Shown: positions 5,463 through 29,361 of the stretch, in pieces
How the letters are laid out: each line of letters starts with the position of its first letter
Numbering within the stretch: the first letter of the stretch is position 1
Source: Nonlabens ponticola
GTDB taxonomy: Bacteria; Bacteroidota; Bacteroidia; Flavobacteriales; Flavobacteriaceae
Direction of reading: 5' to 3'
Assembly: GCF_003966335.1 (NCBI RefSeq)
Contig: NZ_CP034549.1
Coordinates: 540,001-572,000, forward strand
Length of the DNA: 32,000 nt
Made by a program: the position numbers and the translations under genes
The notes under the pieces: model-generated
Told to the model about the DNA's origin: nothing
Seen by the model: the letters and a program-made list of their open reading frames with translations, nothing else
The model's database searches: none

Positions 5463-6509
5463 TTATGCCTTGTCTAGATATGCTTCATACATCATATCAA
5501 CACCTTTTTCTAGGCTCACCTCATGTTTCCAGCCTAGTGCGTGCAGCTTTGACACATCAGTCAACTTGCGTGGTGTGCCGTCAGGTTTTGAGCTGTCCCA
5601 ATTTAATTTGCCAGTGTAACCTACTGTTTTCTTGATCAATGCTGCAAGTTCCTTGATCTCGATGTCTTCACCAGTACCTATGTTTAGGTGTGTGTTTCTT
5701 ACCTCTTTTTGCTCGCCTGCAACGTCCTTAAAATCTATGTTGTGCATTAGATACACACAAGCTTTGGCCATATCGTGTGACCACAAAAACTCTCTTCTAG
5801 GCGAGCCTGTTCCCCATAATTCGATGCTTTCTTTTGTAATGCCGTGTTTGGATAGTTCCGCTTTCGCGAAAGCAAAATTCTCAACATCCATTTCCTTGAC
5901 AAGAGCTTGCTCGTTACCATCCATGAGTAATTTACCCAGGTGCATTTTCCTGATCAAAGCTGGCAACACGTGACTTTTTTCTAGATCAAAATTATCATTT
6001 GGGCCATACAGATTTGTAGGCATGACGCTTATGAAATTGGTGCCGTACTGCAAGTTATAGCTCTCGCACATCTTGATACCAGCGATTTTGGCAATGGCAT
6101 AAGGTTCATTGGTATATTCCAGCGGTCCAGTGAGCAAACTGTCCTCTGGCATAGGCTGTGGCGCCATTTTAGGGTAGATACATGTACTGCCCAGAAACAA
6201 TAATTTCTTCACGCCATTCAAGTAACTGTGATGGATCACATTGTTCTGGATCATCAAGTTCTTGTAGATAAAGTCTGCGCGATAGATGTTGTTTGCTACA
6301 ATGCCACCTACCGTCGCTGCGGCGAGAAAAACATAATCAGGCCTATGATCCTTAAAGAATTGCGCGGTTTGCTGCTGGTCTGTAAGATCTAGTTGCTTGT
6401 GCGTTCTCAAGATCAGGTTTTCATAGCCTTGATCCTTGAGCTCCTGTAAAATGGCGCTACCCACGAGACCGCGGTGACCAGCAATATAGATTTTGGCAGA
6501 TTTCTCCAT
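5463..6509 (-). CDS. fcl: GDP-L-fucose synthase (GDP-4-keto-6-deoxymannose 3,5-epimerase/4-reductase)
   Basis: 348 aa. Matches include [13 protein letters not shown] (Rossmann motif), [31 protein letters not shown] and KPDGTPRKL, which align closely with E. coli Fcl as I recall it. Confidence 0.95.
5860..5873. repeat. Iterated 14-bp palindrome GCTTTCGCGAAAGC, copy 1 (inside fcl)
   Basis: Exact match. Read in the gene frame as GCT TTC GCG AAA GCG, giving AFAKA ([11 protein letters not shown]). Confidence 0.95.
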
Positions 6510-6582
6510 TAGGTATTTTCTATAGACTTACTTGTCTCATGACAAAACTTCTTTTTATAAAGAAGATTGCATGGATATTGAT

Positions 6583-7698
6583 CTACTCATAGTAATTATT
6601 AATGCGGTAACCTCCTCTATTCAAATACTCGTCGCGAGACATGAGATGCAAGTCACTCTTCATCATGTCGTTGACCAGTTCTTGCAGTTCTATTTGTGGT
6701 ACCCAGCCCAGTTTTTCCTTGGCTTTTGATGGATCGCCTATCAATAGGTCTACCTCCGTTGGTCGGAAGTATCTCTCGTCCACTGCAATTACTTCCTTTC
6801 CTATTTCTAGCTGGTAATCAGGATTTGAGCAAGATTTTATGGTTCCCTTTTCATCAACTCCAGTGCCTGTAAATTCTAGCTCTACACCTATGTATTCAAA
6901 CGCCATGCGCACAAAATCACGCACGCTGGTAGTTTTTCCTGTGGCTATTACCCAATCTTCTGGCTCATCATGCTGCAGGATCATCCACATCATGCGAACA
7001 TAATCCTTCGCGTGACCCCAATCGCGCTTGGCATCCAGGTTTCCTAGATAACAGGTGTCTTGCAAGCCTTTGGCGATTTTAGAAACCGCACGAGTAATTT
7101 TTCTAGTCACAAACGTCTCACCGCGCACGGGCGACTCATGATTAAATAAGATACCATTACAGGCAAACATGCCATAAGCCTCGCGGTAGTTAACCGTTGC
7201 CCAGTAGGCATACATTTTGGCCACCGCATACGGGCTGCGTGGATAGAAGGGCGTCGTTTCTGACTGCGGTACTTCTTGCACCTTACCATAAAGCTCTGAT
7301 GTTGAGGCCTGATAGACGCGTGTCTTTTTTTCCATGCCTAGTAACCTCAGTGATTCTAGGATACGCAGGGCGCCTATACCATCCGCATTAGCAGTGTATT
7401 CTGGCATTTCAAAAGATACCTGCACGTGAGACATGGCCGCAAGATTGTAAATCTCATCAGGTTGGGTCTCGTTGATGATTCTTGTCAGGTTTGTAGTGTC
7501 AGTCAAATCGCCATAATGCAGGTGGAATTTGACATTTGCCTCATGCGGATCTTGATACAGGTGGTCAATACGGTCTGTATTGAAAAGGCTGGCGCGACGT
7601 TTTATACCATGAACGGTATATCCTTTCTTTAATAAAAACTCGCTCAAATAGGCACCGTCCTGACCTGTAACTCCAGTAATTAAGGCTACTTTACTCAT
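6583..7698 (-). CDS. gmd: GDP-mannose 4,6-dehydratase
   Basis: The track ORF runs to 7824, but homology starts at [23 protein letters not shown] (ATG at 7696-7698). The upstream extension would overlap rfbD. Conserved GMD motifs are present throughout ([27 protein letters not shown]). Confidence 0.93.
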
Positions 7699-7735
7699 GC
7701 TACTTTTCTTAACAATTCTAATGTGCGAAAATACA

Positions 7736-8578
7736 CTAACTCCTAGACTTATACCTTTCCAGAACTTCTTCAAGCGCGGTATCAATTGTTGGAATGTCAT
7801 AATTAAAGGTCCTTCTAATAGCATCAGTATTCATGACGCTGTACGACGGCCTACTTGCAGCAGTCTTGAATGAGCTTGTAGGATGTATGTTTTTAGGTAC
7901 GTTGGATTTTTGGGATATCGCTTTCGCGAAAGCATACCACGTCAACTCGCCTTGATTAGTATAATGATAAACACCGTGCTCGTCAGGATCATTCTCAACC
8001 AGATGGTTGATGAACAGCGCTACACTGTCTGCGCTGGTAGGCGACCCTAGCTGATTATCAACTACGTGCATCTCTTCTAGGTTATTTTCTAGCACCCATC
8101 GCATGAAATTCTTACCATGAGCAGCGTACAACCAGCTTATTCTAAAAATGTAAAAGCTGGACATGTTATCCTGGATATATTGTTCTCCCAGCAACTTGCT
8201 AGCGCCATACACATTAATAGGTCTCACGGCATCGTGCGGTCTATATGGTAGTGTGGCATTCCCGTCAAAAACATAGTCCGTGGAAAAGTGAATAAGCGTG
8301 ACCCGATGATGCTCGCAGATTTGTGCCAGCTGCCTGACTGCGGTGGCGTTTATTTTGTAGGCTTTCTCGACTTCAGTTTCTGCAAGATCCACTGCGGTGT
8401 AGGCCGCACAGTTGATAAAATAATTTGGCCGATACCTAATTATGGCTGCGGTAATATCTCTAGTACAGCTAATGTCAAGCTCGTCGCTGCCCAGCGCGAT
8501 CAAATCATGATCTACCAGCGCTTGTTGCATGCTTATTCCCAGCATACCATTTGCGCCAGCAAGTAGAATCTTTTTCAA
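7736..8578 (-). CDS. rfbD: dTDP-4-dehydrorhamnose reductase
   Basis: 280 aa with [12 protein letters not shown] (Rossmann motif), TDYVFDG and YGASKLLGE (the YxxxK catalytic motif), typical of RmlD. Confidence 0.88.
7920..7933. repeat. Iterated 14-bp palindrome GCTTTCGCGAAAGC, copy 2 (inside rfbD)
   Basis: Exact match, encoding AFAKA ([11 protein letters not shown]). Confidence 0.95.
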
Positions 8579-8581
8579 AGG

Positions 8582-9685: not shown

Positions 9686-11413
9686 TTACGCATCTGGCGC
9701 AACAGGTTTTACAACGCTGTTTTCTAGAATTTGTTCTAGGATCTTTTCAGTAATTACATAAACTGGCTTTACACCTGTAAGACCTAAACCACCACTGGCA
9801 AGTGTATGGCCTGTTTTCAATGGATTATCGCTAGCATAATATGCATAACGCACTTTTACTTTCTTACTGATGCTGCGACGCACTTTGGATGCCGCTTGAA
9901 TCGCTTTTTGATAATGTGCACCTTCCATTTCAAGACCTATCACACGCCAGCTACTGTTGTAGAAGTATTCAAGTACATCCTTGTTTTGAAGAGAAGTTCC
10001 CAAAACAGTGACCATAGAGCCGCTCACGACGCTCAATCCATCTGTTTTGAGATCTTTTTTACTCAGTCTATTTTTAAATGGATAATTATCTGCCGTGCCT
10101 TCAAAAACGTGGGCATCTGGCACCATAATATCACCTTTCTCGCCTTCAAGAATTCCAGCTTTACCCATAATACTGATGGACTTGATATTCATCATTTTAT
10201 AATCATCCTTGCCGGCTTTGTAAGGTTTTAATAATTCATCCAGTGTTTCATAAGCCTGTTCTCCAAATGCGTAGTCCATAACTATGATGACTGGTTTTTG
10301 ATCTGTTCCGCTTTCGCGAAAGCTGTCTTCACAAAATCCTACCTGCTCAAATTGGAATCTCGCGGTATCAAATATCTGCACGTCAATATTAGTACCGCTC
10401 TCATCCTTGAGTTCTTGCATACCGTTCTTGAGCGCCATTTTCTTGATCACATCGCGGTTTTTCTTGCCTGCATCGTTACTCAAAGAAGCAAAAACTTCCA
10501 TTCTACCTTTTTTTTCCATTTCTGTTTTTAAGGCTTTGGGGCCATAAATGGAATTCATTACACTGTGCAAGTTGGCACTGATGATGTGCAGCGGTCGATC
10601 AAATAAATCATGATCGATCAAATGCTTTTTGATGCGTGTTGCCCAGCGATCACCATGAATATGGTGACCTAATCTCTCGCGTAATACGGGTGAAAATGTA
10701 ACGACACGCTTTTGCTCGTCCATAATCTCACGCTTGCCTAGCAATCCTAAATGGTAAATCGTACTCAAGAATTGATTAGGATTATGCGGCGTTGCAAAGT
10801 CATCATATACGTTCACGACCTCTTCAAAGGTTCTACCCAGAATATTTGCCGTGTGTGTTATGGCGACTTCTTTCTCTTCCTGGCTTAGTTTCTTTTTTTG
10901 AACGGCGTCTTCCAGACAATTCCAGTCTCTGGTCGTGTTGCCGTTCTCGCCAATAATCACGCGTTTCATGATCTTGTGAGATTCAATCATCAGGAATGTC
11001 AAGTGCGTGAGGATATCATAGATCTCTGATCTACCACGAGTGATCTCAATATTCATCTGGTGCTTATCGATGCGATAGCAGTTACGGCGGCGTTTTTTAG
11101 GAACAATCGCCTTGAAGTGGCTGCCAGAATAACCTTCATCACTGGTCAAATTGATATAGGTACATTCCTCGATGCCCATGGGCAATCGATCCATGACATA
11201 AAGCAAGCCACTCAACTCGATCTTATCCTCTGCAATGGAACCGTAGATTTCAGGACGTATGGTAAGCAGCGACTCGCGCAAGGATTCACCACTCACGCCC
11301 ATAGGCTTGTAAAATCCACGATTGAATAAGTGACGCATGGTGATATACATGCGCTCGATAGCATTGGTACTTTCTTGTGCTCTAGTTCTAGGCTCTACGT
11401 TAATGATGGGCAT
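9686..11413 (-). CDS. Uncharacterised conserved protein with a C-terminal AMP-nucleosidase / nucleoside-phosphorylase (PNP_UDP_1)-like domain
   Basis: 575 aa. The C-terminal ~200 aa contain IMGKAGILEG..GDIMVPDAH, VIGLEMEGAHYQKAI and YYASDNPLKTG. These parallel the E. coli AMP nucleosidase core (MIGHCGGL..GDYVLAHA, AIDMESATIAAQ, CVSDKPLHGE) as I recall it. I do not recognise the N-terminal ~370 aa. Confidence 0.6.
   Translation of the reverse strand: MPIINVEPRTRAQESTNAIERMYITMRHLFNRGFYKPMGVSGESLRESLLTIRPEIYGSIAEDKIELSGLLYVMDRLPMGIEECTYINLTSDEGYSGSHFKAIVPKKRRRNCYRIDKHQMNIEITRGRSEIYDILTHLTFLMIESHKIMKRVIIGENGNTTRDWNCLEDAVQKKKLSQEEKEVAITHTANILGRTFEEVVNVYDDFATPHNPNQFLSTIYHLGLLGKREIMDEQKRVVTFSPVLRERLGHHIHGDRWATRIKKHLIDHDLFDRPLHIISANLHSVMNSIYGPKALKTEMEKKGRMEVFASLSNDAGKKNRDVIKKMALKNGMQELKDESGTNIDVQIFDTARFQFEQVGFCEDSFRESGTDQKPVIIVMDYAFGEQAYETLDELLKPYKAGKDDYKMMNIKSISIMGKAGILEGEKGDIMVPDAHVFEGTADNYPFKNRLSKKDLKTDGLSVVSGSMVTVLGTSLQNKDVLEYFYNSSWRVIGLEMEGAHYQKAIQAASKVRRSISKKVKVRYAYYASDNPLKTGHTLASGGLGLTGVKPVYVITEKILEQILENSVVKPVAPDA
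10310..10323. repeat. Iterated 14-bp palindrome GCTTTCGCGAAAGC, copy 3 (inside the PNP-like protein gene)
   Basis: Exact match and the only copy in a different frame: AGC TTT CGC GAA AGC, giving SFRES. It lies in the apparent linker just before the PNP-like domain. Confidence 0.95.
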
Positions 11414-11547: not shown

Positions 11548-13044
11548 CTAGGGCTCATCAAAAAACTTCGCAATTTTCCTGTCGTTAGACAATCTGGGTA
11601 GCTTATTCTGACCTCCTAATTTGCCAATGCTTTTCATGTAGTTTTTAAAGCTGCCTTGTGGTAATATCCTAACTTTAAGTGGTTGCAGGACTTTACCAGT
11701 AATAAGATCATCGTAATAACTATTTTGCTCGCGCATCGCTAGATCTAGAGATGTGGCAAAATCTATTAGCGTTTTATCATCTGGAGCTTTTTCCAGCTCT
11801 AGAAACCACTCGTGATAAGGCAACTCACCAGTTGGTGTATCCAGCTGCGGTGCGACCGTGAATTCGTCAATGATGACATGGTGTTTTGTCGCAGCTTGAT
11901 TGAGTGCCTCTTCTACCTCTTTGCCTATCACATGCTCGCCGCTGGCGCTTATGTAATGCTTGATGCGGCCTGTGACAACTACTCGATAAGGTGCTGTGCT
12001 GGTAAATGCAATGGTATCGCCTATGTTGTACGCCCAAAGTCCTGCGGTAGTTGAGATAATCATCACATAATTGACGCCTATCTCTACCTGACCAATAGTT
12101 AATCGCGGTGGCCGCTCATCATAAAACTGATCTGCTGGTATGAATTCATAAAAGATTCCTGCATCAAGCAATAGCAGCATGCCTTTCTCATTCTGCTTGT
12201 CCTGATAGGCAAAAAAGCCTTCACTGGCTGGAAATAGTTCAATGGTATCTGGCTCGCGACCTATAAGTGATTTGAATTTGGCTCGATAGGGTTCAAAATT
12301 AACGCCACCATAAATAAGCAAATTAAATTCTGGGAAAACCTCGCCCACTTTCTTGCCTGTGCGTTGCACGATGCGCTCAAAATACATTTGTAACCAGCTG
12401 GGAATTCCTGAAATAACGCTCATTCGTTCTGGAATGGTCTCGTCGATGACGGCCTCAACCTTGGTTTCCCAATCGTCAATTAAGTTTGTTTCCCATGACG
12501 GCAGCCTGTTGCGCTGCAAATAGTTAGGCACATAATGAGCTACAATGCCGCTCAACCTACCTAGTTTGATTCCGTTTTTTTCTTCCATTTCTGGGCTTCC
12601 TTGCAGGAAGATCATCTTACCGTCCACAAACTTTGAATTGCCAGTCTCATGTATATAACTCAAGATAGCGTTGCGTGCCGCCTTGATGTGCTCTGGCATA
12701 GATTCTTTTGTAATTGGGATGTATTTGGCGCCGCTGGTAGTTCCACTGGTTTTAGCGAAATAAAGTGGTTTCCCTGGCCATAGAACGTCTTTATCGCCAG
12801 CTACCACTCGGTCGATAAAGGGCTTAAGGTCTTCATAGTCACGCACTGGAACGTTATCTGCAAACTCTTGATGTGTGGAGATGATTGAGAATGAGTGCGC
12901 TTTCGCGAAAGCGGTATCACCAGCCACCTTCAATAACATCTTAAATACATTTTCTTGAGAACGTACTGGATTTTGTGCCCATCGCTGGGTCTTGCGGTTT
13001 ACTCGTGCGGCAAAAACGCGCGCGGCAATGGCTTTAATCGACAT
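11548..13044 (-). CDS. GH3 (auxin-responsive promoter) family acyl-acid amido synthetase-like adenylating enzyme
   Basis: 498 aa with FAKTSGTTSGAKYIPIT (the GH3 nucleotide-binding motif) and the overall GH3 length and pattern. Its start overlaps the M23 stop (TAATG). Confidence 0.85.
   Translation of the reverse strand: MSIKAIAARVFAARVNRKTQRWAQNPVRSQENVFKMLLKVAGDTAFAKAHSFSIISTHQEFADNVPVRDYEDLKPFIDRVVAGDKDVLWPGKPLYFAKTSGTTSGAKYIPITKESMPEHIKAARNAILSYIHETGNSKFVDGKMIFLQGSPEMEEKNGIKLGRLSGIVAHYVPNYLQRNRLPSWETNLIDDWETKVEAVIDETIPERMSVISGIPSWLQMYFERIVQRTGKKVGEVFPEFNLLIYGGVNFEPYRAKFKSLIGREPDTIELFPASEGFFAYQDKQNEKGMLLLLDAGIFYEFIPADQFYDERPPRLTIGQVEIGVNYVMIISTTAGLWAYNIGDTIAFTSTAPYRVVVTGRIKHYISASGEHVIGKEVEEALNQAATKHHVIIDEFTVAPQLDTPTGELPYHEWFLELEKAPDDKTLIDFATSLDLAMREQNSYYDDLITGKVLQPLKVRILPQGSFKNYMKSIGKLGGQNKLPRLSNDRKIAKFFDEP
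12899..12912. repeat. Iterated 14-bp palindrome GCTTTCGCGAAAGC, copy 4 (inside the GH3 gene)
   Basis: Exact match that extends to the 16-bp palindrome CGCTTTCGCGAAAGCG. Encodes AFAKA (GDTAFAKAHS). Confidence 0.95.
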
Positions 13045-15282: not shown

Positions 15283-16776
15283 TTATTTTAAGACCAGCGT
15301 CATTCCTGGTTTTAGATTCTTAGAAGCCTTAGGGTTTAATCGCTTAAGTTCCTTGACGGTCATGTTATTGCGCCTAGATATTGCCCATAGGCTGTCACCA
15401 GATCGCACGACATAATTTTTGACCTTTGCCGTTTGCCTAGTTGCACCGGTCGTGGTGTTAATTTTAAGACGCTGCCCAATTGTCAATTTATTGCTGCGTA
15501 GGCGATTCCATCTTTTGATTTCGGAAACCCTAACATTATATCGTGCTGCGATTTTACCTAGATAATCACCGCTGCGCACCCTATAAGTAATGCTGGTTGA
15601 TGGCTTGAGAAGCTCTGGTAATGGTTGTTCTCTTTTTTCAAATTCTGCTTTCGCGAAAGCGTAAACCTTATCCTCATTACCTGCAATAACGGCAACCTGC
15701 TCTATAGGTAGCCTCAAATAATGTGGTTTGCCTTGCTCTATAGGTATGATTCCCAATTTGTAACTAGGATTAAAAAACTCGATGGTTTCCTTGTCAATGT
15801 CTAGCTGGCTCTCGATTTGATCAAAGGAGATTTGATTCTTAATCAGGACCGTATCAGTCTCCATCATAAGCCTAGAAGTGCGCTGTGGTTTAAAGCCATG
15901 CTCTTGGGCATATGTGAACAAATACATCATCGCCTGGAATTTAGGCACGTAACCAGCAGTTTCCCTAGGTAAATGCGGTCGCAAATTCCAGTAATTTTTC
16001 TTGCCGCCACTACGGCGTATGGCTTTGTTGACATTACCAGCACCGCTGTTGTAAGCGGCGAGAGCCAGATCCCAATCATCATAAATGCTGTAGAGTCTGT
16101 TGAGATATTTACATGCCGCTATGGTTGATTTATTGGGATCCATGCGCTCGTCAACATAAGAGTTGACCTCGAGCCCATAACCTTTGCCCGTTGCATACAT
16201 AAACTGCCAGAGTCCGGTTGCACCTACTCTACTCTTTATTTTCGGATCCAGAGCGCTCTCAACAACGGCTAGATATTTCATCTCTAACGGTATGTCATAG
16301 CGATCCAGCTGCTCCTCAAACATGGGGAAATAATAATCACTAAGCGTCATGATGCGTTCTAGATACACACGCTTGTAGGTAAGTTGCTTTTTTATAAGCT
16401 GCTCAAGAATTGGGTTGTATTCAATATTAAAAGGCGTGCGCTCATTTATGCGCTGTAATCTCGCCTTGAGCGTATCTGTGCTTAATGTTGAGTCACCTAC
16501 ATTAGGTAAGCTATCTATATTTTTAAATAAATACTCATAGCCATCATGATCATACAGCATGTCCATGTAGGCCTGATCAAATCGATCTACCTCTTCATAG
16601 TTCTTCATCACTAGTGAGTCCAGCGATTGCAAGGGATCGATTGCTCGATCAACGCTAGTCGTTTCCAGAAACTTGACACTATCCACGGCAACGACCATAG
16701 AGTCTGTAACCTGCCCTTGCATCAATGCGCAGGACAACAGGATAAAGAGTGTCCACATTTTCTTGAGGTACATCAT
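15283..16776 (-). CDS. Membrane-bound lytic murein transglycosylase D-like protein (SLT domain plus two LysM domains)
   Basis: 497 aa with a signal peptide, the SLT catalytic region VVESALDPKIKSRVGATGLWQFM...AAYNSG, and two C-terminal LysM repeats (YRVRSGDYLGKIAARYNV..., YVVRSGDSLWAISRRNNM...). Confidence 0.88.
   Translation of the reverse strand: MMYLKKMWTLFILLSCALMQGQVTDSMVVAVDSVKFLETTSVDRAIDPLQSLDSLVMKNYEEVDRFDQAYMDMLYDHDGYEYLFKNIDSLPNVGDSTLSTDTLKARLQRINERTPFNIEYNPILEQLIKKQLTYKRVYLERIMTLSDYYFPMFEEQLDRYDIPLEMKYLAVVESALDPKIKSRVGATGLWQFMYATGKGYGLEVNSYVDERMDPNKSTIAACKYLNRLYSIYDDWDLALAAYNSGAGNVNKAIRRSGGKKNYWNLRPHLPRETAGYVPKFQAMMYLFTYAQEHGFKPQRTSRLMMETDTVLIKNQISFDQIESQLDIDKETIEFFNPSYKLGIIPIEQGKPHYLRLPIEQVAVIAGNEDKVYAFAKAEFEKREQPLPELLKPSTSITYRVRSGDYLGKIAARYNVRVSEIKRWNRLRSNKLTIGQRLKINTTTGATRQTAKVKNYVVRSGDSLWAISRRNNMTVKELKRLNPKASKNLKPGMTLVLK
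15647..15660. repeat. Iterated 14-bp palindrome GCTTTCGCGAAAGC, copy 5 (inside the MltD-like gene)
   Basis: Exact match, encoding AFAKA (KVYAFAKAEF). Confidence 0.95.
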
Positions 16777-19801: not shown

Positions 19802-20638
19802 CTATTGTGCTTTTTTGAAGATGTAAATATGCGAAGATGCTTGATTGGTGAAAATCGTAGCAATATTTGAAAATAAACCTATGATTCCGCCTATGACTAA
19901 TGGAAGCGGCCATTTTTTATATCGCGCTGATAAAATAGAGACATAGAAACTATCAAGCCACATAACTTTTGTATTGACCAATTCAAACTTACCATCAAAA
20001 ACTGATTGAATACCGTTTTTATCAAAATGCCACAAATGCCTAGGAACATCCCACGCGGCCCAATACTTACCGAATAATTTTGCGTCTAGGGATTTATGAT
20101 TAGGAACCGCAATAATTACATGACCATCTTCCTCTACAATTTTAGATAAATAGTGTAATTGCTCACTTAAATCCTCAACATGCTCTAGGACATGAAACAT
20201 GGTAACCACTCGATAGGATTTTATTTGAGCATCGGGTAGCTCATCCAGCAGCTGAATCCCTTTTTGATAAGCAAACTTTCGCGCAAGCGGGCTAGGCTCA
20301 AAACCAATTGCATCAAATCTATTTTCTCTCAAATAGGAAACTAGCTCACCGTTGCCCGCTCCAATATCTAACATTGGACCTTCTGGCAAGTATTTACTGA
20401 TCAAAGATTTTTTGCTATTAAGATTCCAATTCCTTGCTGTCTTATATAAGCTTGCAAATAATCCTGTGTTAGAGTCGTCATGACTCAAGTATTCATCACT
20501 TTGATAATACTTGTCCAGGTTTGATGGAATAGGCATGGTTTTCAGCAAACCATCAATTGTAGTTTTGACAATATCAAAATGCTCTTGAGTCAAAAAATAA
20601 TCCTGGGTACTGCTATGTAGTTTCTTTTTTTTGCTCAT
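19802..20638 (-). CDS. Class I SAM-dependent methyltransferase
   Basis: 278 aa with motif I MLDIGAGNGELVSYL and a downstream VVTMFHVLEHV. Last gene of the mnmG operon. Confidence 0.8.
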   Translation of the reverse strand: MSKKKKLHSSTQDYFLTQEHFDIVKTTIDGLLKTMPIPSNLDKYYQSDEYLSHDDSNTGLFASLYKTARNWNLNSKKSLISKYLPEGPMLDIGAGNGELVSYLRENRFDAIGFEPSPLARKFAYQKGIQLLDELPDAQIKSYRVVTMFHVLEHVEDLSEQLHYLSKIVEEDGHVIIAVPNHKSLDAKLFGKYWAAWDVPRHLWHFDKNGIQSVFDGKFELVNTKVMWLDSFYVSILSARYKKWPLPLVIGGIIGLFSNIATIFTNQASSHIYIFKKAQ

Positions 20639-20654
20639 TGTTTCACGTGAAACT
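20639..20654. promoter_or_regulatory. parS: parS-like centromere site (15/16 match; inner 14 bp perfect)
   Basis: TGTTTCACGTGAAACt versus consensus TGTTNCACGTGAAACA. It fills the 14-nt gap between the mnmG stop and the methyltransferase start. Confidence 0.7.
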
Positions 20655-22525: not shown

Positions 22526-22945
22526 TCATTGTTTCACGTGAAACATTTGCATCTTCTGCGATTCCAATAGTCTCATTTTGGCAGACTCTTCGTCGGTCTT
22601 ATCTCCATAACCTATCATGTGTAAAAGACCATGAACCATGACTCTTCTTAACTCGTCATCTTGACTGACATTGTAGATGAAAGCATTCTCATTTACACGA
22701 TCCGTAGAAATGTATATCTCGCCTTCCAAAACATCATCTACCGAATAATCAAAAGTGATAATGTCCGTAAAGGTATCATGATTCAAGTGCTGTTGATTAA
22801 TGTCCAACAAGAACTCGTCACTACAAAAAACATAATTCAATGACTTGATAGAGCAATTCTCACTATCTGCAACACGATTCAACCACTCAATGTAATTCTT
22901 CGGAGAGGAGAATTCAAAGTTGTTCTGCGAATCAAACTCAATCAT
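22526..22945 (-). CDS. ybeY: rRNA maturation endoribonuclease YbeY
   Basis: 139 aa with the HGLLHMIGYGD metal-binding motif. 8-nt overlap with the upstream gene and a 1-nt gap to mnmG. Confidence 0.9.
   Translation of the reverse strand: MIEFDSQNNFEFSSPKNYIEWLNRVADSENCSIKSLNYVFCSDEFLLDINQQHLNHDTFTDIITFDYSVDDVLEGEIYISTDRVNENAFIYNVSQDDELRRVMVHGLLHMIGYGDKTDEESAKMRLLESQKMQMFHVKQ
22530..22545. promoter_or_regulatory. parS: parS centromere site (16/16 match to consensus)
   Basis: TGTTTCACGTGAAACA, a perfect 16-bp palindrome. It encodes the last residues of YbeY (M-F-H-V-K-Q) and ends 5 nt before the mnmG ATG. Confidence 0.85.
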
Positions 22946-25900
22946 TGGTTTTGAAATAGGATTTCACCTTACCCTTGTATTGTGGTTGCAAAGGTAATAC
23001 TTGTCTATTGAGTATTTCTTTGTTCTCAAAGTATCTCTGTATAGTGGCATCCAGCTGTGAAGCGGTATTGATATACTGGCGCTGGTTTGCATTTGATTGA
23101 CGTTGCTCGTCCTTTCCTTGTTCAAGGTTTGCATCTTTGAGCTTGAGCAAATCATACAAGATCTCAGACATCTCATTTTGCACATCGCGGTTGAACCCTT
23201 GATCCAGCAACTTACGTTCCACACCTTTCATCTGATCGCGTATCTCATCCACCTTTTGCTGCAAGCCTTCATCAATAATCATATCTTCTAACTGATTGCG
23301 CAATTCTTGTTGTTGTTTGTAAATTTCGTAAATACGCTGACTTTCCTCTTCAGACTCTTGATAAGACTGCTTGTCGCCATTTAAGCCTTCACCAGATCCA
23401 TTCCCATCTCCATTACCTTGACCTGTTGATCCATTAGTACCATTTTGACTTTCGGATCCTTGACCTTGTCCGTTTTCTCCTTGTTGACCTTGCCCAGCCT
23501 GGCCTGGATTTCCTGATTGACCTGCTTGCCCGTTCTCGCCCGATTGACCAGAACCTTGTCCAGATGTGCCTTGACTGCCATGTGATTGCCCTGATCCACT
23601 CGTGCCACTTTCACCTTGCTGGCCTGGTGCGCCACTATTGCCCGGCTTTCCTTCTCCTGGTTTATCACCTTTGCCGTCACCAGGCTTTTCTCCATCGCCA
23701 TCGCCTTCTTTCTCTCCTTCACCTTTTTTTTCACCTAGGCTTTTTTGTTTCTTAATAATATCTGGCAATTGGAATCCAGCGCCTTGACCTCCTTTTTGAG
23801 GTTTACCAGGAATAGCTGGAGAGTTAAGCTGATCAAGCACACCGCTTAACATCGCGGCAAGTGCATTTGCCCCTTTGAGACTTGATTGCTGTGACACCTG
23901 TCCAGCCGGTATATCAAGATCACCCAATCTTTCTAAGGATTTTTCAAGATTGTAGTAGATATCTATCACCTCTTTATTGATCTTCTCACCTACCTCAGGA
24001 TTGCGGGTACTTAACGAAAACAAGCTATCATCCACGTGCTTAAAAACAGTCTCGAGCTCTTTTTGTAAACGCAACGTCTTGCCATAAGATAGGCTATTGG
24101 CGGTGATACTTTTTACCTCATCGAGTAAATCCTCTTGCTCTTGAGAGAAAACAATTAGGTTGTCCAATACCTGACGTAAAGATTCGGCATCCTCTTCCTT
24201 TGCCTCAGCCTCCATGCTTTGCATATCTTTTTGCATCTTGGCAGCTTGCTTTTTCATAAGCTGTGCTGCCTTACTTTGATTGTCTTGTGCATCCTTAGGT
24301 GACGCCTTTTCCAAATCGTCCGTTGCCTGTTGCTGCTCATCCTTGATCTCATCACCATCTTCTGGATAAAAATCGAGATTCATGTCTTGCTTGAGGTCCT
24401 CATTCTCCTTTTCCAGGTCTCTAAGTTCCTGTTCCCATTTCTTGTATTCCTCATTGAGTATCTCTTGCGCTTCCTTAGTATTAGTAGCATCACTTTTTTT
24501 GGATAACTCTTGTTGACGCTGCGCTATTTCTTGTAACTTCTTACCTAATTGCTCGAACTTTTGGGCAACATAATAGCGCTTAGTCAACTCCAACAATTGC
24601 TCTAGACTGCGCTGTTGTTGCTTAGTGTTTTTTTGTGCCTTTTGTAATTCTTCCTGCAATTCTTCTTTGGATATCTTATCCTGATATTCCTCTAGTTGTT
24701 TGAGTAATTCTTCATTCTTTTTGGATTGCTTGACTGATTCTTGCATGCGCTCCTGTAATTGCTTTTTGCGCTCATCCGGCTCTGATGTTTTGTCAAGTTG
24801 CTTGTCTAGTTGTTTAAGTTGCTGCTGTATAGTTTTTTCCTGCTGCTGCTGTTTTTGTAGCGCTTGTTCAAGCTTACGCCTATCACTAAAGGATCTTGAT
24901 CGCTTCTCTATTTGCTCTTGAGACAGATTTTCTAAGGCTTTTTGCTCCTGTTTTTGCTCTTCAAGTGCCTTTTCAAGGCTGGAAAGCGATTGTTTCTGGT
25001 TCTTCAACTGTTCTTCTTGCTCTTGTGGCAATGTGGGCTGTGAGAATGTGAACGTTTGTGATTTTACAGACTTGTAATTGTGGATCGCATCATTGTCGAC
25101 AACTTCAAAATAGAGGCTGTACTCATGACCACGCTCTAATTGTACGTCGCCAGGAAAGCTTGTCAAGAATTGGTGAAAGGCAGCACCGCTGGAGAAGGCA
25201 ATCTTCTTGAGTTGCAATTCCTGTGGTTGATCATTTTTAAAATATACCAGATCAATGGATCTAAGGCCATAATCATCTGCGGCCTGTCCATTAAAATACA
25301 TCACACGCTCCTCGATGGAGTCTCGCTTCATTTCTACCTTTAACTCAGGAAACTCATCTGTGATGACTTCGAGATTAAAGTCCAATTGTTCATAGCCTGA
25401 TACATTCTCGTTGCTAGTACTTACGGTATAGGGTAGGTCGTTAAGTACCGCTTTCGCGAAAGCAAAATCATCACCAACCTTATCAAAATTGATAGCCTCA
25501 TCACCACCCGATTTGTATTGTACCAACTGTGTTGACAGCGCGCCAATGTTCCACGTGACCACGGTTCCCTGCGGTATTATAGCGTTACCGGTGCCGTTGA
25601 TCTTTTCATCTACTTTACCCGTATAATTAGGGTAGTCCAGCATCATGGTAAACTCACTGATGGTAGGAACGCTGTTTACCTGAAGCTTATAATCCATACT
25701 GCGCACATCGTTTGCAGCGATATAGAAATCAATATCATCTTCTGGGCGCTCAAAGTCAAATGTGTACGAGCTAGGCGATATTTGTGTCATGAAATATTCT
25801 TGACCGTCGTATAATATGCTTGCATTCTCTGGGAGCTTGTCACCTGTAACATTTACTTGTAACTGAAAGTTCGTTCCCTGCAGGGTCGATAAATCACCAT

Positions 25901-26501
25901 TGACTACCGTAAAAGTGAATGGCGCTGGTGGAATGTATTCATTAGAATAATCTACTACTCTACTGGCACTAGAGGTTAGCATCTCGTCATTATTGGTAAA
26001 GAAAATGGCTGCAATAATCACTAGCGGTATCGCGAGGTATTTTAAGTACTTCTTGTTACTGCCTAAATCAATGGCTAGTGAAAAAGGTATAGGCTTAAGT
26101 TCTTCACTCTTCTGATTGATACTAGCCCATGTGAGATCGTCATCGCCACCGCTAGAGTGCAACTGCAACACGTTGACCAGCTTGTCAGACACTTCTGGAA
26201 AATAATTGCCAATGATATTACTAGCATCTCTAAAATCGATGCCGCGAGCCAATCGTAGCAAACGCGCCAATGGAATAAAGACAAACTTGATTAAAAGTGC
26301 TAACTCTACAATGATAAACAACCAGAATAAAATGGTTCTTCCCAAGCTGCTGAGCCATAAAAAATGCTCTATTAGCGCGGTCGTGAGAAAATAAAGCAAA
26401 CCAATAGCAAGAAATAACAGCGCACCTCGCAACAGATCATTGAGGTAAAATTTACCTATGAACTTTTCAAGCTTTACCTGTATGATTTCAAAATTGCTCA
26501 A
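22938..26501 (-). CDS. Large membrane-anchored protein with N-terminal TM helices, a beta-rich region, a long K/E/Q coiled coil and a Gly-rich collagen-like segment (possibly DUF4175 family)
   Basis: 1187 aa. TM helices lie within aa ~25-80 and ~155-170. The heptad-like K/E/Q-rich region spans aa ~490-780 and the G-rich region aa ~923-1043. The family name is from memory and unverified. Confidence 0.7.
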   Translation of the reverse strand: MSNFEIIQVKLEKFIGKFYLNDLLRGALLFLAIGLLYFLTTALIEHFLWLSSLGRTILFWLFIIVELALLIKFVFIPLARLLRLARGIDFRDASNIIGNYFPEVSDKLVNVLQLHSSGGDDDLTWASINQKSEELKPIPFSLAIDLGSNKKYLKYLAIPLVIIAAIFFTNNDEMLTSSASRVVDYSNEYIPPAPFTFTVVNGDLSTLQGTNFQLQVNVTGDKLPENASILYDGQEYFMTQISPSSYTFDFERPEDDIDFYIAANDVRSMDYKLQVNSVPTISEFTMMLDYPNYTGKVDEKINGTGNAIIPQGTVVTWNIGALSTQLVQYKSGGDEAINFDKVGDDFAFAKAVLNDLPYTVSTSNENVSGYEQLDFNLEVITDEFPELKVEMKRDSIEERVMYFNGQAADDYGLRSIDLVYFKNDQPQELQLKKIAFSSGAAFHQFLTSFPGDVQLERGHEYSLYFEVVDNDAIHNYKSVKSQTFTFSQPTLPQEQEEQLKNQKQSLSSLEKALEEQKQEQKALENLSQEQIEKRSRSFSDRRKLEQALQKQQQQEKTIQQQLKQLDKQLDKTSEPDERKKQLQERMQESVKQSKKNEELLKQLEEYQDKISKEELQEELQKAQKNTKQQQRSLEQLLELTKRYYVAQKFEQLGKKLQEIAQRQQELSKKSDATNTKEAQEILNEEYKKWEQELRDLEKENEDLKQDMNLDFYPEDGDEIKDEQQQATDDLEKASPKDAQDNQSKAAQLMKKQAAKMQKDMQSMEAEAKEEDAESLRQVLDNLIVFSQEQEDLLDEVKSITANSLSYGKTLRLQKELETVFKHVDDSLFSLSTRNPEVGEKINKEVIDIYYNLEKSLERLGDLDIPAGQVSQQSSLKGANALAAMLSGVLDQLNSPAIPGKPQKGGQGAGFQLPDIIKKQKSLGEKKGEGEKEGDGDGEKPGDGKGDKPGEGKPGNSGAPGQQGESGTSGSGQSHGSQGTSGQGSGQSGENGQAGQSGNPGQAGQGQQGENGQGQGSESQNGTNGSTGQGNGDGNGSGEGLNGDKQSYQESEEESQRIYEIYKQQQELRNQLEDMIIDEGLQQKVDEIRDQMKGVERKLLDQGFNRDVQNEMSEILYDLLKLKDANLEQGKDEQRQSNANQRQYINTASQLDATIQRYFENKEILNRQVLPLQPQYKGKVKSYFKTND
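23373..23735 (-). repeat. Low-complexity Gly-rich, partly G-X-Y (collagen-like) coding repeat inside the 1187-aa CDS
   Basis: The translation reads GEGEKEGDGDGEKPGDGKGDKPGEGKPGNSGAPGQQGESGTSG...GENGQAGQSGNPGQAGQG...GNGDGNGSGEG. Degenerate triplet periodicity at the DNA level opens spurious ORFs in other frames. Confidence 0.8.
25450..25463. repeat. Iterated 14-bp palindrome GCTTTCGCGAAAGC, copy 6 (inside the 1187-aa protein gene)
   Basis: Exact match, encoding AFAKA (DDFAFAKAVLN). Confidence 0.95.
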
Positions 26502-26545
26502 TGGCTAATTGTTGCGTTGTTGATTACTTGTGCATTTAATGACTA

Positions 26546-26553: not shown

Positions 26554-26671
26554 ATGACTATCAACCTAGTAGAAGTTCCTATAAATCTGAATCGTCTTGA
26601 GGTTGCAGCATCAAAAGATTTGATTAACAAATTTTTATGGTTTACTTTTAATCCTGCAGTAAATTAAAATT

Positions 26672-27727
26672 ATGAAAGATCTCAAATATTTAACCGCATA
26701 TGTTGTACCTATATTGTGTGTTGTCAGCATCTATTATGGTGGCTGGTCTTTATACCTGACACCATTGGTCATTTTTGGGATTGTTCCATTTCTGGAATTG
26801 TGGATGCCGTCCTTAAAAAGCAATCTTGAAGATGACGAGCGTGAAGAAAAAATAGCCAATAAATTTTTTGATATGCTGCTATGGCTTAATGTTCCTATTG
26901 TTTTTGGGGTGTTGGGCTATGGTTTCTATACCTACTCCATTAGTGCGTTTGAAACCTACGAGATTATTGGCTTAGTATTTTCCCTAGGTATCGTTGCAGG
27001 AAGTAATGGTATCAACGTGGCTCACGAACTAGGTCACCGTCAAGATACGTGGGAACGCTTTTTGGGCAAGGCCTTGCTATTACCTAGCCACTACATGCAT
27101 TTTTATATCGAGCACAATTACGGTCATCATTTGAAAGCTGCCACTCCAGATGATCCAGCAAGCGCACGATACAATGAGAATTTGTATGCTTTCTGGATAC
27201 GATCAGTGAGCAGTCAATATTCTAGCGCTTGGGAAATTCAATCCAGATTGAACAACGCAGCCGAAAGGTCTTTCTTCTCGTTCAAGAATGATATGCTGTG
27301 GTACACGATAATTCAAATATCCTATATCGCGCTCATTGCTGTAGTCTTATCGCCAGCGACGGCTCTTATTGCTATAGCAGTAGGAATTGTAGGCTTTACC
27401 TTATTGGAAATTATCAATTACCTGGAACATTATGGTTTGCGCCGTGCACAGAAAAAATCTGGGCGATATGAAATCGTGCGAGAAATGCACAGCTGGAATT
27501 CTAATCATGCTTTAGGTCGCATTTTGTTATACGAATTGACCAGACACAGCGATCACCACTATCGTGCAAGCAAGAAATATCAAGTACTGGATTATCACGA
27601 CATAAGCCCACAACTGCCTTACGGGTATCCTACCATGATGGTAATTGCTACCATACCACCGCTATGGTTTGCCATTGTAAACAAGCACGTGCCTAAAGAG
27701 ATGGTGGCATTGCAAACAGCTGCTTGA
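26672..27727 (+). CDS. alkB: Alkane 1-monooxygenase (AlkB-type integral-membrane di-iron hydroxylase)
   Basis: 351 aa with the histidine boxes HELGHR, EHNYGHH, NYLEHYGL and HSDHH in AlkB order and spacing, plus N-terminal TM helices. Confidence 0.85.
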   Translation: MKDLKYLTAYVVPILCVVSIYYGGWSLYLTPLVIFGIVPFLELWMPSLKSNLEDDEREEKIANKFFDMLLWLNVPIVFGVLGYGFYTYSISAFETYEIIGLVFSLGIVAGSNGINVAHELGHRQDTWERFLGKALLLPSHYMHFYIEHNYGHHLKAATPDDPASARYNENLYAFWIRSVSSQYSSAWEIQSRLNNAAERSFFSFKNDMLWYTIIQISYIALIAVVLSPATALIAIAVGIVGFTLLEIINYLEHYGLRRAQKKSGRYEIVREMHSWNSNHALGRILLYELTRHSDHHYRASKKYQVLDYHDISPQLPYGYPTMMVIATIPPLWFAIVNKHVPKEMVALQTAA

Positions 27728-27815
27728 AAAACATCTTGTTAGCTCCTAATCTATTACGCAATCCGTTCGTAACGACATAAGATCAACATCCCTTTTACTC
27801 GCGATAAGCATTCTT

Positions 27816-27823
27816 TATCTTTG
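27816..27823 (+). promoter_or_regulatory. Bacteroidota -7 promoter box TAtcTTTG upstream of gltX
   Basis: Exact TAnnTTTG match, 23 nt upstream of the gltX ATG. Confidence 0.5.
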
Positions 27824-27846
27824 CAATCTCAAAAAATTGCCTAGAT

Positions 27847-29361
27847 ATGACTCAAGATGTACGTGTAAGATTTGCTCCTAGCCCAACTGGGCCGTTGCAT
27901 ATAGGTGGTGTGCGCACAGCGCTTTTCAACTACCTGTTTGCCAAAAAACATAACGGCACTTTCATCCTACGTATTGAGGATACTGACCAGAATAGATATG
28001 TTCCTGGTGCAGAAGATTACATCATCGAGGCACTCAACTGGTGTAACATACCTTATGATGAAGGACCTGGAAAAGAGGCTAATTACGGTCCATATCGTCA
28101 AAGCGAGCGCAAGGATAGATACCGTGATTACGCCTTACAATTAGTAGAAAAAGGTGCTGCTTACTATGCGTTTGATACTGCTGAGGAACTTGCAGAAGCA
28201 AGACAAAAAGCAGAATCTAATAAGGAAACTTTTATCTACAACCATCACAACCGCGACCAGTTTACCAACTCATTGACACTATCCAATAACGAGGTGCGTG
28301 ATCGCATTGCATCTGGTGATGCCTATACCATACGTTTTAAGCCAGAGCTTAAGACGTTATTCATGCATGATGAAATACGCAAAGGCATTGAGATTGACAC
28401 AAGCTTACTGGATGATAAGGTGTTGTTCAAAAGTGATGGTATGCCTACCTATCACCTCGCGAATATTGTGGACGATCACGAGATGAAAATATCGCACGTG
28501 ATACGTGGTGAAGAGTGGTTGCCTAGTATGGCTTTGCACGTGTTATTGTATGAAAGTTTTGGTTGGGACGCGCCTAAATTTGCGCACTTACCATTGATCC
28601 TCAAGCCTACCGGTAAAGGAAAATTAAGCAAGCGCGATGGTGATAAGCTGGGTTTTCCTGTTTTCCCGCTAGCGTGGAATCCTGAAGTAGGTTCATCCAG
28701 TACTGGTTATCGAGAAGACGGTTATTTGCCTGAAGCCGTAATCAACATGCTTGCTTTTCTAGGTTGGAATCCAGGAACTGAGCAGGAATTATTTACCTTA
28801 AAGGAGCTTATTCATGCCTTTGACCTAGATAGAGTGAATTCATCAGGTGCTAAATTTGATCCTGAAAAAACTAAGTGGTTTCAGCAACAGTGGTTTGTGC
28901 AGCAGGACGATGCCGTCATAGGTTCCGCTTTCGCGAAAGCGTTACAAGAAAAAAACATCGACTACAAGTCACAGGATTATGTCAATATCATCGTTGGTCT
29001 GGTGAAAGAACGTGCCGTGTTTGTAGAAGACTTATTTGAACTCGCAGGCTTTTTCTTTACTGCACCTAAGGAATTTGATAACAAAGCTGCTTCAAAATCA
29101 TGGAAAGATGACACGAGCGACCTTATGCAACATGTTATTGATGTGATTCAAAAAGCAGGAGACACGACAGCATTAGAATTAAGCAATGCGGTAAAAGGCT
29201 GGATCAAGGAACAGGAAATGGGTTTTGGTAAGGTGATGATGCCGCTTAGACTATCGCTGGTAGGTAGCCTTATGGGACCCGACGTTTTTGAAATCGCGAG
29301 TATGATAGGTGTTGATGAGACAATTTCACGCATACGGTTTGCCAGCGAACAGTTAGGCTAG
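27847..29361 (+). CDS. gltX: Glutamate--tRNA ligase
   Basis: 504 aa with RFAPSPTGPLHIGGVRTALFNY (HIGH motif), RIEDTD and KLSKR (KMSKS motif). Confidence 0.97.
   Translation: MTQDVRVRFAPSPTGPLHIGGVRTALFNYLFAKKHNGTFILRIEDTDQNRYVPGAEDYIIEALNWCNIPYDEGPGKEANYGPYRQSERKDRYRDYALQLVEKGAAYYAFDTAEELAEARQKAESNKETFIYNHHNRDQFTNSLTLSNNEVRDRIASGDAYTIRFKPELKTLFMHDEIRKGIEIDTSLLDDKVLFKSDGMPTYHLANIVDDHEMKISHVIRGEEWLPSMALHVLLYESFGWDAPKFAHLPLILKPTGKGKLSKRDGDKLGFPVFPLAWNPEVGSSSTGYREDGYLPEAVINMLAFLGWNPGTEQELFTLKELIHAFDLDRVNSSGAKFDPEKTKWFQQQWFVQQDDAVIGSAFAKALQEKNIDYKSQDYVNIIVGLVKERAVFVEDLFELAGFFFTAPKEFDNKAASKSWKDDTSDLMQHVIDVIQKAGDTTALELSNAVKGWIKEQEMGFGKVMMPLRLSLVGSLMGPDVFEIASMIGVDETISRIRFASEQLG
28927..28940. repeat. 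Iterated 14-bp palindrome GCTTTCGCGAAAGC, copy 7 (inside gltX)
   Basis: Exact match that extends to the 16-bp palindrome CGCTTTCGCGAAAGCG. Encodes AFAKA (IGSAFAKALQE). Confidence 0.95.

Follow-up and report, generated by a model that had tools for sequence, protein, structure and literature searches.

An exact, dyad-symmetric DNA word with skewed flanks in the marine flavobacterial genera Nonlabens and Dokdonia

In a 32-kb stretch of the Nonlabens ponticola chromosome (contig NZ_CP034549.1, positions 540,001 to 572,000; the whole stretch is referred to here as the window), we found seven exact copies of a 14-bp palindrome, GCTTTCGCGAAAGC, whereas none was expected from 100 dinucleotide-preserving shuffles. 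Comparison with other genomes suggests that this palindrome acts like a highly iterated palindrome (HIP) or an uptake sequence, yet it is neither HIP1 nor the DNA uptake sequence (DUS) or the uptake signal sequence (USS), from which it differs in sequence, phylum, length, and its architecture of a palindrome plus flanks. Hyper-abundant exact genomic words are known in few bacterial lineages, namely the DUS of Neisseriaceae, the USS of Pasteurellaceae, and the HIP1 of cyanobacteria. Their origin and role are still debated, and GCTTTCGCGAAAGC represents an independent, unusually long, and clean case. A literature search returned no description of GCTTTCGCGAAAGC, nor of any iterated palindrome in Bacteroidota. 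The reading that we favor, which we regard as evenly poised between right and wrong, is that GCTTTCGCGAAAGC is a HIP1- or USS-like "self" word to which a homodimeric protein binds, probably as part of DNA uptake or recombination.

Distribution, spacing, and exact conservation of the palindrome

The GltX encoded in the window matches that of N. ponticola with 100% identity. The coordinates of the seven copies and of the genes that carry them are given in Table 1. Within the window, the 10-bp center of the palindrome, TTTCGCGAAA, occurred solely inside these seven copies. Allowing up to three mismatches added two sites, one with two mismatches at 20275 and one with three mismatches at 30460, against 1.3 expected by chance. 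The window thus holds perfect copies, essentially without a degenerate cloud around them.

Table 1. Copies of GCTTTCGCGAAAGC and associated features in the window. ORF, open reading frame.
Feature	Coordinates	Gene	Strand of gene	Reading	Basis or remark
Copy 1	5860..5873	fcl-like GDP-fucose synthase/epimerase gene, 5463-6509	minus	A-F-A-K-A frame	exact search, ORF map, Pfam
Copy 2	7920..7933	rfbD/RmlD gene, 7736-8578	minus	WYAFAKAIS	exact search, ORF map, Pfam
Copy 3	10310..10323	DUF6909 gene, 9686-11413	minus	S-F-R-E-S, frame +1	exact search, ORF map, Pfam
Copy 4	12899..12912	GH3-family gene, 11548-13044	minus	DTAFAKAHS	exact search, ORF map, Pfam
Copy 5	15647..15660	SLT+LysM transglycosylase (MltD-like) gene, 15283-16776	minus	VYAFAKAEF	exact search, ORF map, Pfam
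Copy 6	25450..25463	gene for a 1187-aa protein, 22938-26501	minus	DFAFAKAVL	exact search, ORF map
Copy 7	28927..28940	gltX, 27847-29361	plus	GSAFAKALQ	exact search, ORF map
Skewed flanks, ~25 nt each side of every copy	5835..28965				clade-wide profile; by eye in all seven window copies
Possible decayed or nascent copy ACTTTCGCGCAAGC, 2 mismatches	20275..20288	methyltransferase gene			membership uncertain

We scanned one genome per prokaryotic species (596 Gb, reported as 8-kb blocks) for the 14-mer and obtained at least 120 blocks that contain GCTTTCGCGAAAGC. Among the matches listed, 91 blocks were flavobacterial, nearly all of them from Dokdonia, Nonlabens, and uncultured or unnamed Flavobacteriaceae, and many of these carried two to three copies per 8 kb. 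The other 29 blocks listed held single matches from unrelated, mostly GC-rich phyla, in line with the chance expectation in 596 Gb. Listed blocks from single chromosomes lay megabases apart, and GCTTTCGCGAAAGC is therefore no local peculiarity.

For an unbiased estimate of density, we used 155 kb of Nonlabens and Dokdonia DNA in loci picked by gene and not by motif. Besides the window with its seven copies in 32 kb, these comprised 21.5-kb loci from N. agnitus, N. spongiae, N. ulvanivorans, and a Dokdonia sp. (five copies each), a 21.5-kb locus from an N. tegetincola-like genome (four copies), and a 15.4-kb metagenomic Nonlabens locus (one copy). The in-group total was 32 copies, or about one per 4.8 kb, which extrapolates to roughly 600 copies per 2.9-Mb genome. 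In other Flavobacteriaceae, 1.03 Mb of sequence (78 metagenomic gltX neighborhoods together with Salinimicrobium tongyeongense) contained no copy at all. GCTTTCGCGAAAGC is specific to the marine flavobacterial genera Nonlabens and Dokdonia.

The two genera share the same core and differ slightly at position -2. Where the two genera are syntenic (21 kb), the five Dokdonia copies all stood at other positions than the Nonlabens copies, and density was equal in both genera. The non-coinciding positions suggest either that sites accumulated independently in Nonlabens and Dokdonia or that each genus acquired the responsible system. A few isolated copies occurred in other flavobacterial sequences (our handles L110:157 and 1090; L071:7055 from Aquimarina; L030 and L112 from Leeuwenhoekiella; L107 from Altibacter; L101 from Flavobacterium sp. 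LPB0248), and two species of Aquimarina carried GCTTTCGCGAAAGC at the signal-peptide cleavage site of an orthologous outer-membrane gene. Such copies may be chance matches, products of transfer, or signs that the same process operates there at a low level.

A scan of viral collections gave 118 matches, mostly single chance ones, with a mean GC content of 0.51. A few viral contigs of GC content 0.36-0.39 held two to three copies per 11-14 kb. Two IMG/VR contigs of phage or prophage origin (L289:191-11198 and L253:4210-10968) carried three copies each, a host-like density. Both encode a portal, a head-maturation protease, and major head proteins, and some of the copies lie within these genes. 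The palindrome could help to link phage contigs with Nonlabens or Dokdonia as their hosts.

Copies of GCTTTCGCGAAAGC repel each other, giving strong over-dispersion and an even spacing. The smallest of 71 gaps between neighbors was 856 bp, and short gaps were scarce when compared with random placement in the same blocks: none was below 500 bp (9.7 expected), two were below 1 kb (18.3 expected), and 12 were below 2 kb (33 expected). Not one of 2000 simulations was as extreme as the observed spacing.

The palindrome is also held with high precision. At 17 pairs of orthologous sites, the 14-mer was 98% identical, as opposed to 70% for the 24-nt flanks. When the seven window copies were compared with their orthologues in other Nonlabens, 10 of 14 comparisons were exact, two differed by a single base, and in two the motif was absent. 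The motif at the site of copy 1 is also found in another Nonlabens (L038) and in N. ulvanivorans (L322); the latter shares copies 2 and 5 as well and carries a one-mismatch version, GCTTCCGCGAAAGC, at the site of copy 3. Copy 6 is exact at the orthologous codon in N. agnitus and N. spongiae and has one mismatch in a metagenomic Nonlabens (L122). The DNA of copy 7 is exact in five Nonlabens genomes whose flanks differ. Sites within Nonlabens were stable down to about 72% GltX identity.

Decayed copies were few. Clade DNA (767 kb) contained 168 perfect copies, 16 with one mismatch, and 17 with two, against zero, zero, and three, respectively, in 1.01 Mb of outgroup DNA. Perfect copies thus exceed one-off copies by about 10 to 1, and two-mismatch words are about 7-fold commoner in the clade than in outgroups (17/767 kb vs 3/1.01 Mb). 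The changes in one-off copies were distributed over all seven half-site positions. Together, the small number of decayed copies and the spread of their changes support that each of the 14 positions matters. Isolated half-sites were not enriched (65 per Mb in the in-group vs 95 per Mb in outgroups). We also considered the internal TCGCGA as the real unit and rejected it, because this hexamer is often found elsewhere (24 times in 155 kb of in-group DNA) while TTCGCGAA and longer words are found almost exclusively within it. The unit is the whole palindrome. As a separate observation, TCGCGA outside the motif was about 3-fold more frequent per Mb in the Nonlabens and Dokdonia loci than in other Flavobacteriaceae, often in the form TCGCGAG.

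Reading frames, origin in place, and flanking composition

A sequence-only reading of the window, made by a model ahead of this analysis, had noted that six of the seven copies are translated as A-F-A-K-A with the same codons. It had proposed that the responsible force acts on the DNA word and not on the peptide, the frame bias reflecting which translations proteins can tolerate. Exact searches and the ORF map confirmed the pattern: the six copies read GCT TTC GCG AAA followed by GCG in five cases and GCA in one, and the seventh is translated as S-F-R-E-S. We then tabulated frames for the 167 clade copies that had 27 nt or more of flank per side. The 129 confidently coding copies comprised 73 in the AFAKA frame, 27 in the FRES frame, and 29 in the LSRK frame; the other 38 fell in short ORFs or outside coding sequence. 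A frame bias does exist, but it is weaker than the six of seven seen in the window, which overstates it. Peptide tolerance fits this non-uniform usage. The objection of the sequence-only reading to the third frame, that it would need rare-looking codons, did not hold: the LSRK frame accounts for 22% of the coding copies and is used about as often as FRES.

Codon preference was rejected as the source of the frame bias, since the codon frequencies of the window genes predict the wrong order of frames (FRES > AFAKA >> LSRK; 0.63, 0.34, and 0.03). In these genes, the AFAKA frame draws on minority codons (TTC, 29% of Phe; GCG, 17% of Ala), and the LSRK frame, despite its share of the copies, draws on rare ones (TCG, 8% of Ser; CGA, 13% of Arg). 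Moreover, 22% of 177 clade copies were non-coding, as compared with 9.4% of random positions classified by the same rule (p=4e-7). Copies are thus 2.4-fold enriched in non-coding DNA, and 78% are intragenic. The use of three frames and of non-coding DNA indicates that GCTTTCGCGAAAGC is selected or driven as DNA, as the sequence-only reading had supposed. Its view gains further from two results: the 14-mer stays exact while neighboring synonymous sites diverge, and distant taxa do not conserve AFAKA at the sites in question, their orthologues having, for example, HFKQL, EFAKK, EFGKD, or GYAQA instead.

Homologues without the motif revealed how copies arise. Among 120 GltX homologues, AFAKA was present in 84 of the 89 sequences of the Nonlabens clade, and GltX from Aquimarina, Dokdonia, Salegentibacter, and others had an x-F-x-x-L/I segment of the same length in its place. 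In the gltX codon alignment, the Nonlabens genomes share GCT TTC GCG AAA GCG and differ at adjacent synonymous sites; Dokdonia reads CAT TTT AAG CAG CTT at the site of copy 7. The Dokdonia gene has a copy of its own 270 codons upstream (L321:10280), which replaces R-D-Y-A-L-Q-L at equal length. A corresponding picture was obtained for the other genes. PDB homologues of Fcl have ..EEAKN.. where the window has AFAKA, with no difference in length. In RmlD, AFAKA replaces E-F-A-K-K (3sc6) or D-F-A-R-E (Salinimicrobium) within a conserved segment of unchanged length, and in the MltD-like protein it replaces G-Y-A-Q-A of Salinimicrobium, again at equal length. The counterpart segments are E-F-A-K-Q in PGK and Q-F-A-K-R in the methyltransferase. 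At the place of copy 6 in the 1187-aa protein, Dokdonia has S-L-T-K-R, and the DUF6909 site has unrelated sequence in Salinimicrobium.

The GH3 gene preserves intermediates. There, AFAKA overwrote T-E-F-G-K-D-H, which is conserved in outgroups, and other Nonlabens have AFGKD, AFGKA, AFGKS, or AFSKA. The N. ulvanivorans version, GCT TTC GGT AAA TCA, is three mismatches from GCTTTCGCGAAAGC. These alignments show that copies are built stepwise, in place, and without change of length, preferentially at x-[F/Y]-[A/G]-[K/R/Q]-x peptides. Such pre-adapted peptides are the simplest explanation for the bias toward the AFAKA frame.

The conjecture that the gltX copy came about by substitution and not by insertion was borne out by the same-length homologues, both there and at every other site examined. 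The accompanying suggestion that copies sit in linkers or variable segments did not hold. The RmlD and GH3 copies replace conserved segments, and the GltX and GH3 copies map to confidently modeled helices: copy 7 lies in helix 355-368 of the GltX AlphaFold model (predicted local distance difference test score, pLDDT, ~95), and copy 4 lies in helix 45-49 of the GH3 AlphaFold2 model.

Two further observations concern the places where copies are found. In the class I methyltransferase gene (window 19802-20638; L320:1572, L319 ~3680, L321:2496), which in the window holds the two-mismatch site at 20275 and in N. spongiae and Dokdonia has perfect copies at other positions, three states were seen within a 10-codon stretch. 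The copy of N. spongiae is perfect and read in the AFAKA frame; N. agnitus carries CGCTTTGCGCGAAAGC, equivalent to GCTTTCGCGAAAGC with one extra base and translated as R-F-A-R-K-L; and the perfect copy of Dokdonia, in the LSRK frame, lies six codons further downstream. This stretch may be a local hot spot for motif birth. In addition, a large share of the AFAKA-frame copies lie exactly at predicted signal-peptide cleavage sites, in the arrangement hydrophobic stretch, A-F-A-K-A, and then Q or S (for example, L043:1303, L113:3059, L015:5484, L026:4855, and L100:6347). Such sites suit the element in their A-x-A rule and in a codon composition that is first T-rich and then A/C-rich.

Sequence preference continues beyond the core. 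The consensus is TT(A/C)C-GCTTTCGCGAAAGC-G(T/G)AA; symmetrized flanks have C in 80% of cases at -1, A or C at -2, and T in 60-70% at -3 and -4. Non-coding copies form a 22-bp palindrome, TTAC-core-GTAA, the duplex of which is TTACGCTTTCGCGAAAGCGTAA. Further out, at -5 to -16, the 5' flank of each strand is G/T-rich and C-poor (C 0.07-0.08 vs a background of 0.19; T 0.37-0.46 vs 0.31; G 0.25-0.27 vs 0.19), and background composition is regained by about -30. The 3' flank is the mirror image, A/C-rich and G-poor. The real unit is a dyad-symmetric element of ~60 bp that consists of the extended core and ~25-nt flanks. These flanks, the even spacing, and the clade specificity go beyond what had been noted from the window.

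The flank skew was alike whichever frame was used, extended unchanged to non-coding copies, did not differ between the two genera, and was absent around chance matches in other phyla. In AFAKA-frame genes, codons of the GNT type (D, V, G) are favored upstream of the copy and A/C-rich ones (K, Q, N, T) downstream of it, so that in coding copies the element biases about eight codons on each side. When codon-aligned orthologues were compared, the bearer of the motif was the more skewed at 11 of 11 sites (mean index +0.24 vs +0.01 without the motif, a mean excess of +0.23; Wilcoxon p=0.001). The skew is confined to lineages that carry the copy; it thus arrives together with the motif and does not precede it at the site. 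Copies common to several species had a higher skew than single-species copies (0.33 vs 0.14), a difference that was not significant with 11 sites. Transversions and transitions contributed equal shares to the net shift toward G/T, which tentatively suggests, at a divergence near saturation, that flank composition is under selection or drive and is not a simple scar of deamination. We accordingly demoted the geometrically attractive idea of a deamination scar, in which a central nick or break would expose precisely these skewed strands. A long hairpin or cruciform was rejected, as complementarity between the flanks beyond +/-2 did not differ from the compositional expectation.

Two observations concern the genes and sites around the copies. 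The longest ORF for RmlD (7736-8578) begins with a TTG start, and the 3' end of the neighboring ORF at 6583-7824 overlaps it by ~90 bases. The start of the upstream ORF is likely over-extended; the RmlD stop and the start of its neighbor are probably fine. The window also contains two canonical parS sites, TGTTTCACGTGAAAC, at 20639-20654 and 22530-22545, which directly flank mnmG/gidA and are kept in place in N. agnitus, N. spongiae, N. ulvanivorans, and one metagenomic Nonlabens. Their position suggests that the window is probably origin-proximal. parS is a palindrome family separate from GCTTTCGCGAAAGC.

Candidate mechanism and rival explanations

The dyad symmetry and exactness of the word, its footprint in the flanks, and the evenly spaced copies suggest a DNA-binding protein that is homodimeric and highly specific for sequence. 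In the mechanism that we propose, a site would give its locus a transmission or fitness advantage, as a "self" tag favored in DNA uptake and recombination would do; this is the known mechanism that fits best, namely that of DUS and USS, and it has now been proposed for HIP1 too. Perfect alleles would displace decayed ones, new sites would grow stepwise where proteins tolerate them, and weak flank preferences would accumulate later. If the advantage saturated at about one site per few kb, the even spacing would be explained. Graded sequence preferences would likewise account for a core that is stronger than its flanks and for the stepwise formation of sites. A bolder form of this proposal, which we hold only tentatively and think rather less probable than the general one, is that GCTTTCGCGAAAGC marks a system for recognizing "self-DNA" by sequence, which would be the first described in Bacteroidota. 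The 22-bp palindrome with its strand-skewed flanks would be read during uptake or recombination by a receptor or processing enzyme acting as a homodimer, and the resulting drive would be strong enough to overwrite conserved protein motifs and bias about eight codons per side.

Several points weigh against a role in uptake or recombination. We know of no uptake, binding, or methylation experiment for Nonlabens or Dokdonia, and to our knowledge competence is undocumented in both. Known uptake sequences are asymmetric 9-12-mers found about once per kb, whereas here a 14-22-bp palindrome recurs about once per 5 kb. We found no counterpart of the keto/amino flank skew for DUS, USS, or HIP1, and the skew could stem from a protein of another type, for instance a topoisomerase, a nucleoid protein, or the recombination machinery. 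No candidate for the receptor gene was identified. The density estimates derive from ~155 kb of gene-anchored, largely origin-proximal DNA and from motif-selected blocks, not from whole genomes. Finally, Dokdonia and Nonlabens sites differ in the syntenic region, and the history of the system may be vertical or transferred.

The strongest competitor, which we consider unlikely but by some way the most serious of the alternatives, is that GCTTTCGCGAAAGC is the binding site of a chromosome-organizing protein (a nucleoid-associated protein, a ParB/Noc-like clamp loader, or a type II topoisomerase) kept by ordinary selection at regular distances so as to structure or relax the chromosome, with no transfer drive. 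Dyad symmetry and the symmetric footprint of ~60 bp resemble a protein dimer touching the flanks, and both the absence of close pairs in an evenly spaced array and the long-term stability of sites would be expected. The TTTC...GAAA half-sites loosely resemble parS and Noc sites, with real parS in the same window, and by our own inference the central CGCG would suit the 4-bp stagger of a type IIA topoisomerase. Sites of this kind are normally degenerate, however, and here all 14 positions are held in ~90% of copies. The TTTC and GAAA arms are 2 bp apart and not 4 bp as in parS and Noc-binding sites, so that GCTTTCGCGAAAGC is no canonical ParB-family site. Nor is the occurrence in prophage structural genes at host-like density obviously predicted.

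An improbable alternative is a Chi-like "self" signal for a double-strand-break helicase-nuclease of the AddAB/RecBCD type, in which the palindrome would work in both directions and RecA would be loaded onto a 3' tail formed by the G/T-rich 5' flank of each strand. One site per 4.8 kb is similar to the density of E. coli Chi, and phages, whose prophage genes here carry GCTTTCGCGAAAGC, gain from host Chi. The geometry also fits, as the preserved 3'-ended strand would terminate in the motif, with the G/T-rich flank behind, for an enzyme arriving from either side, and RecA prefers GT-rich or TGG-type single-stranded DNA (PMC3763553). However, known Chi sequences are 5-8 nt long, asymmetric, and read on a single strand; a half-site should then suffice, yet half-sites are not enriched. 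Recognition of 14 exact bases would be unprecedented. The GT-rich islands historically described around Chi are a weak precedent, having been put down to codon usage by later papers.

We think it slightly less probable again that the word is functionless and arises neutrally from biased repair linked to a DNA methyltransferase with an internal recognition word such as TCGCGA or CGCG, as was once proposed for HIP1. A palindrome with a restriction-site-like center (TCGCGA is the NruI site) invites this explanation, orphan methyltransferases are associated with HIP1 (PMC4390886), and the GH3 intermediates amount to directional substitution. A methyltransferase word of 4-8 bp, however, cannot specify 14-22 bp and 25-nt flanks, and TCGCGA on its own is not converted, being common outside the motif. 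A mutational process would scatter copies randomly, in contrast to the strong over-dispersion observed, and the rare one-off copies change at all positions instead of at CpG.

The last two explanations are both highly improbable. A mobile micro-element, such as a repetitive extragenic palindrome (REP) or a miniature inverted-repeat transposable element, or else a transposon excision footprint, would account for a dispersed, identical palindromic repeat with intergenic enrichment, but it is contradicted by sites that are each as long as their motif-free homologues, by the predominance of copies within genes in which a 14-nt insertion would shift the frame, by flanks conserved as composition and not as sequence, and by the stepwise GH3 intermediates. 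Selection for the AFAKA peptide, or for an RNA hairpin in transcripts, could draw on the six AFAKA copies of the window and on a 22-nt extended form that can fold (-8.3 kcal/mol), but the same DNA word is present in two other frames and in non-coding DNA, outgroup orthologues are without AFAKA, the 14-mer hairpin reaches just -1.9 kcal/mol (z=0.05) with native contexts no more stable than shuffles, sequence is kept and not base pairing (no flank-flank pairing beyond +/-2), and a search of Rfam returned no family match.

The system lends itself to further work. Its hosts are abundant, culturable marine Flavobacteriaceae with complete genomes, and the word is long enough (14-22 bp) to make chance copies negligible. 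Its history is readable in stepwise intermediates, in sites that differ between genera, and in sites that are stable within Nonlabens, and the flank footprint adds a second, weaker layer of sequence preference. Drive as opposed to selection, the protein that reads the word, and the cost to protein evolution can now be addressed. On the practical side, efficient genetic work with these proteorhodopsin-bearing model flavobacteria may depend on GCTTTCGCGAAAGC, as it seemingly does on HIP1 in cyanobacteria, and metagenomic and phage contigs can be binned to these hosts with GCTTTCGCGAAAGC as a precise taxonomic marker.

Comparison with known systems

Extreme over-representation, clade specificity, stepwise origin in place, the use of all frames with a non-coding excess, exact conservation, and even spacing place GCTTTCGCGAAAGC in the class of DUS and HIP1. 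HIP1 is conserved in all frames with non-random spacing (PMC5861425) and has been linked to transformation (bioRxiv 10.64898/2026.06.24.733823). For USS and DUS, Findlay and Redfield described frame bias and effects on the proteome, using the same argument from frames (PMC2817400). In a related family, Riemerella is naturally competent and prefers its own DNA, with no identified uptake word (PMC7965970).

The closest analogue is HIP1 (GCGATCGC) of cyanobacteria. Both are short, perfect, clade-specific palindromes that are over-represented by orders of magnitude, both occupy three reading frames as well as non-coding DNA, and both are conserved at orthologous sites beyond what codon conservation entails. 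HIP1 has non-random spacing, and copies of GCTTTCGCGAAAGC are strongly over-dispersed; HIP1 also has palindromic extensions in some genomes (PMC5861425, PMC4390886). In contrast, the sequences are unrelated, GCTTTCGCGAAAGC belongs to Bacteroidota, and its length is 14-22 bp as against 8-10 bp. At ~0.2 per kb it is about 10-fold sparser than HIP1, which reaches 0.3-2.7 per kb. One-off variants are rare for GCTTTCGCGAAAGC and common for HIP1 (PMC4390886). The ~25-nt keto/amino-skewed flanks have no counterpart that we found reported for HIP1, and HIP1 has cognate orphan methyltransferases (DmtA/DmtC), whereas no associated methyltransferase is known for GCTTTCGCGAAAGC. GCTTTCGCGAAAGC is therefore analogous to HIP1 without being a member of it.

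With the DUS of Neisseria and the USS of Pasteurellaceae, GCTTTCGCGAAAGC shares hundreds of exact copies common to related genera, a mostly intragenic location, a frame bias set by protein tolerance, a measurable distortion of the proteome, and accumulation by substitution at tolerant positions; the strong core with weaker flanking preferences recalls USS in particular. Unlike the asymmetric DUS and USS, it is palindromic and hence its own reverse complement. It is also longer and about 5-fold sparser, and it can overwrite conserved residues. Its choice of frame, unlike that of USS, does not follow preferred codons.

Resemblance to other dispersed words is more partial. GCTTTCGCGAAAGC resembles Chi in density, in the part it would play as a "self" word of its lineage, and in the G/T-rich sequence around it on the would-be 3'-tail strand; Chi, however, is an asymmetric word of 5-8 nt that is oriented with replication, whereas the unit of GCTTTCGCGAAAGC is the whole palindrome, half-sites of which are not enriched. 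Sites of the parS/Noc type are perfect palindromes of 14-16 bp with TTTC...GAAA arms and are often intragenic, but the parS consensus, TGTTNCACGTGAAACA, has 4 bp between its arms and few copies near oriC, as compared with 2 bp and hundreds of copies for GCTTTCGCGAAAGC. REPs and bacterial interspersed mosaic elements are likewise dispersed palindromic repeats with hundreds of copies. REPs are extragenic, imperfect, and inserted, whereas GCTTTCGCGAAAGC is 78% intragenic, exact, and made by substitution.

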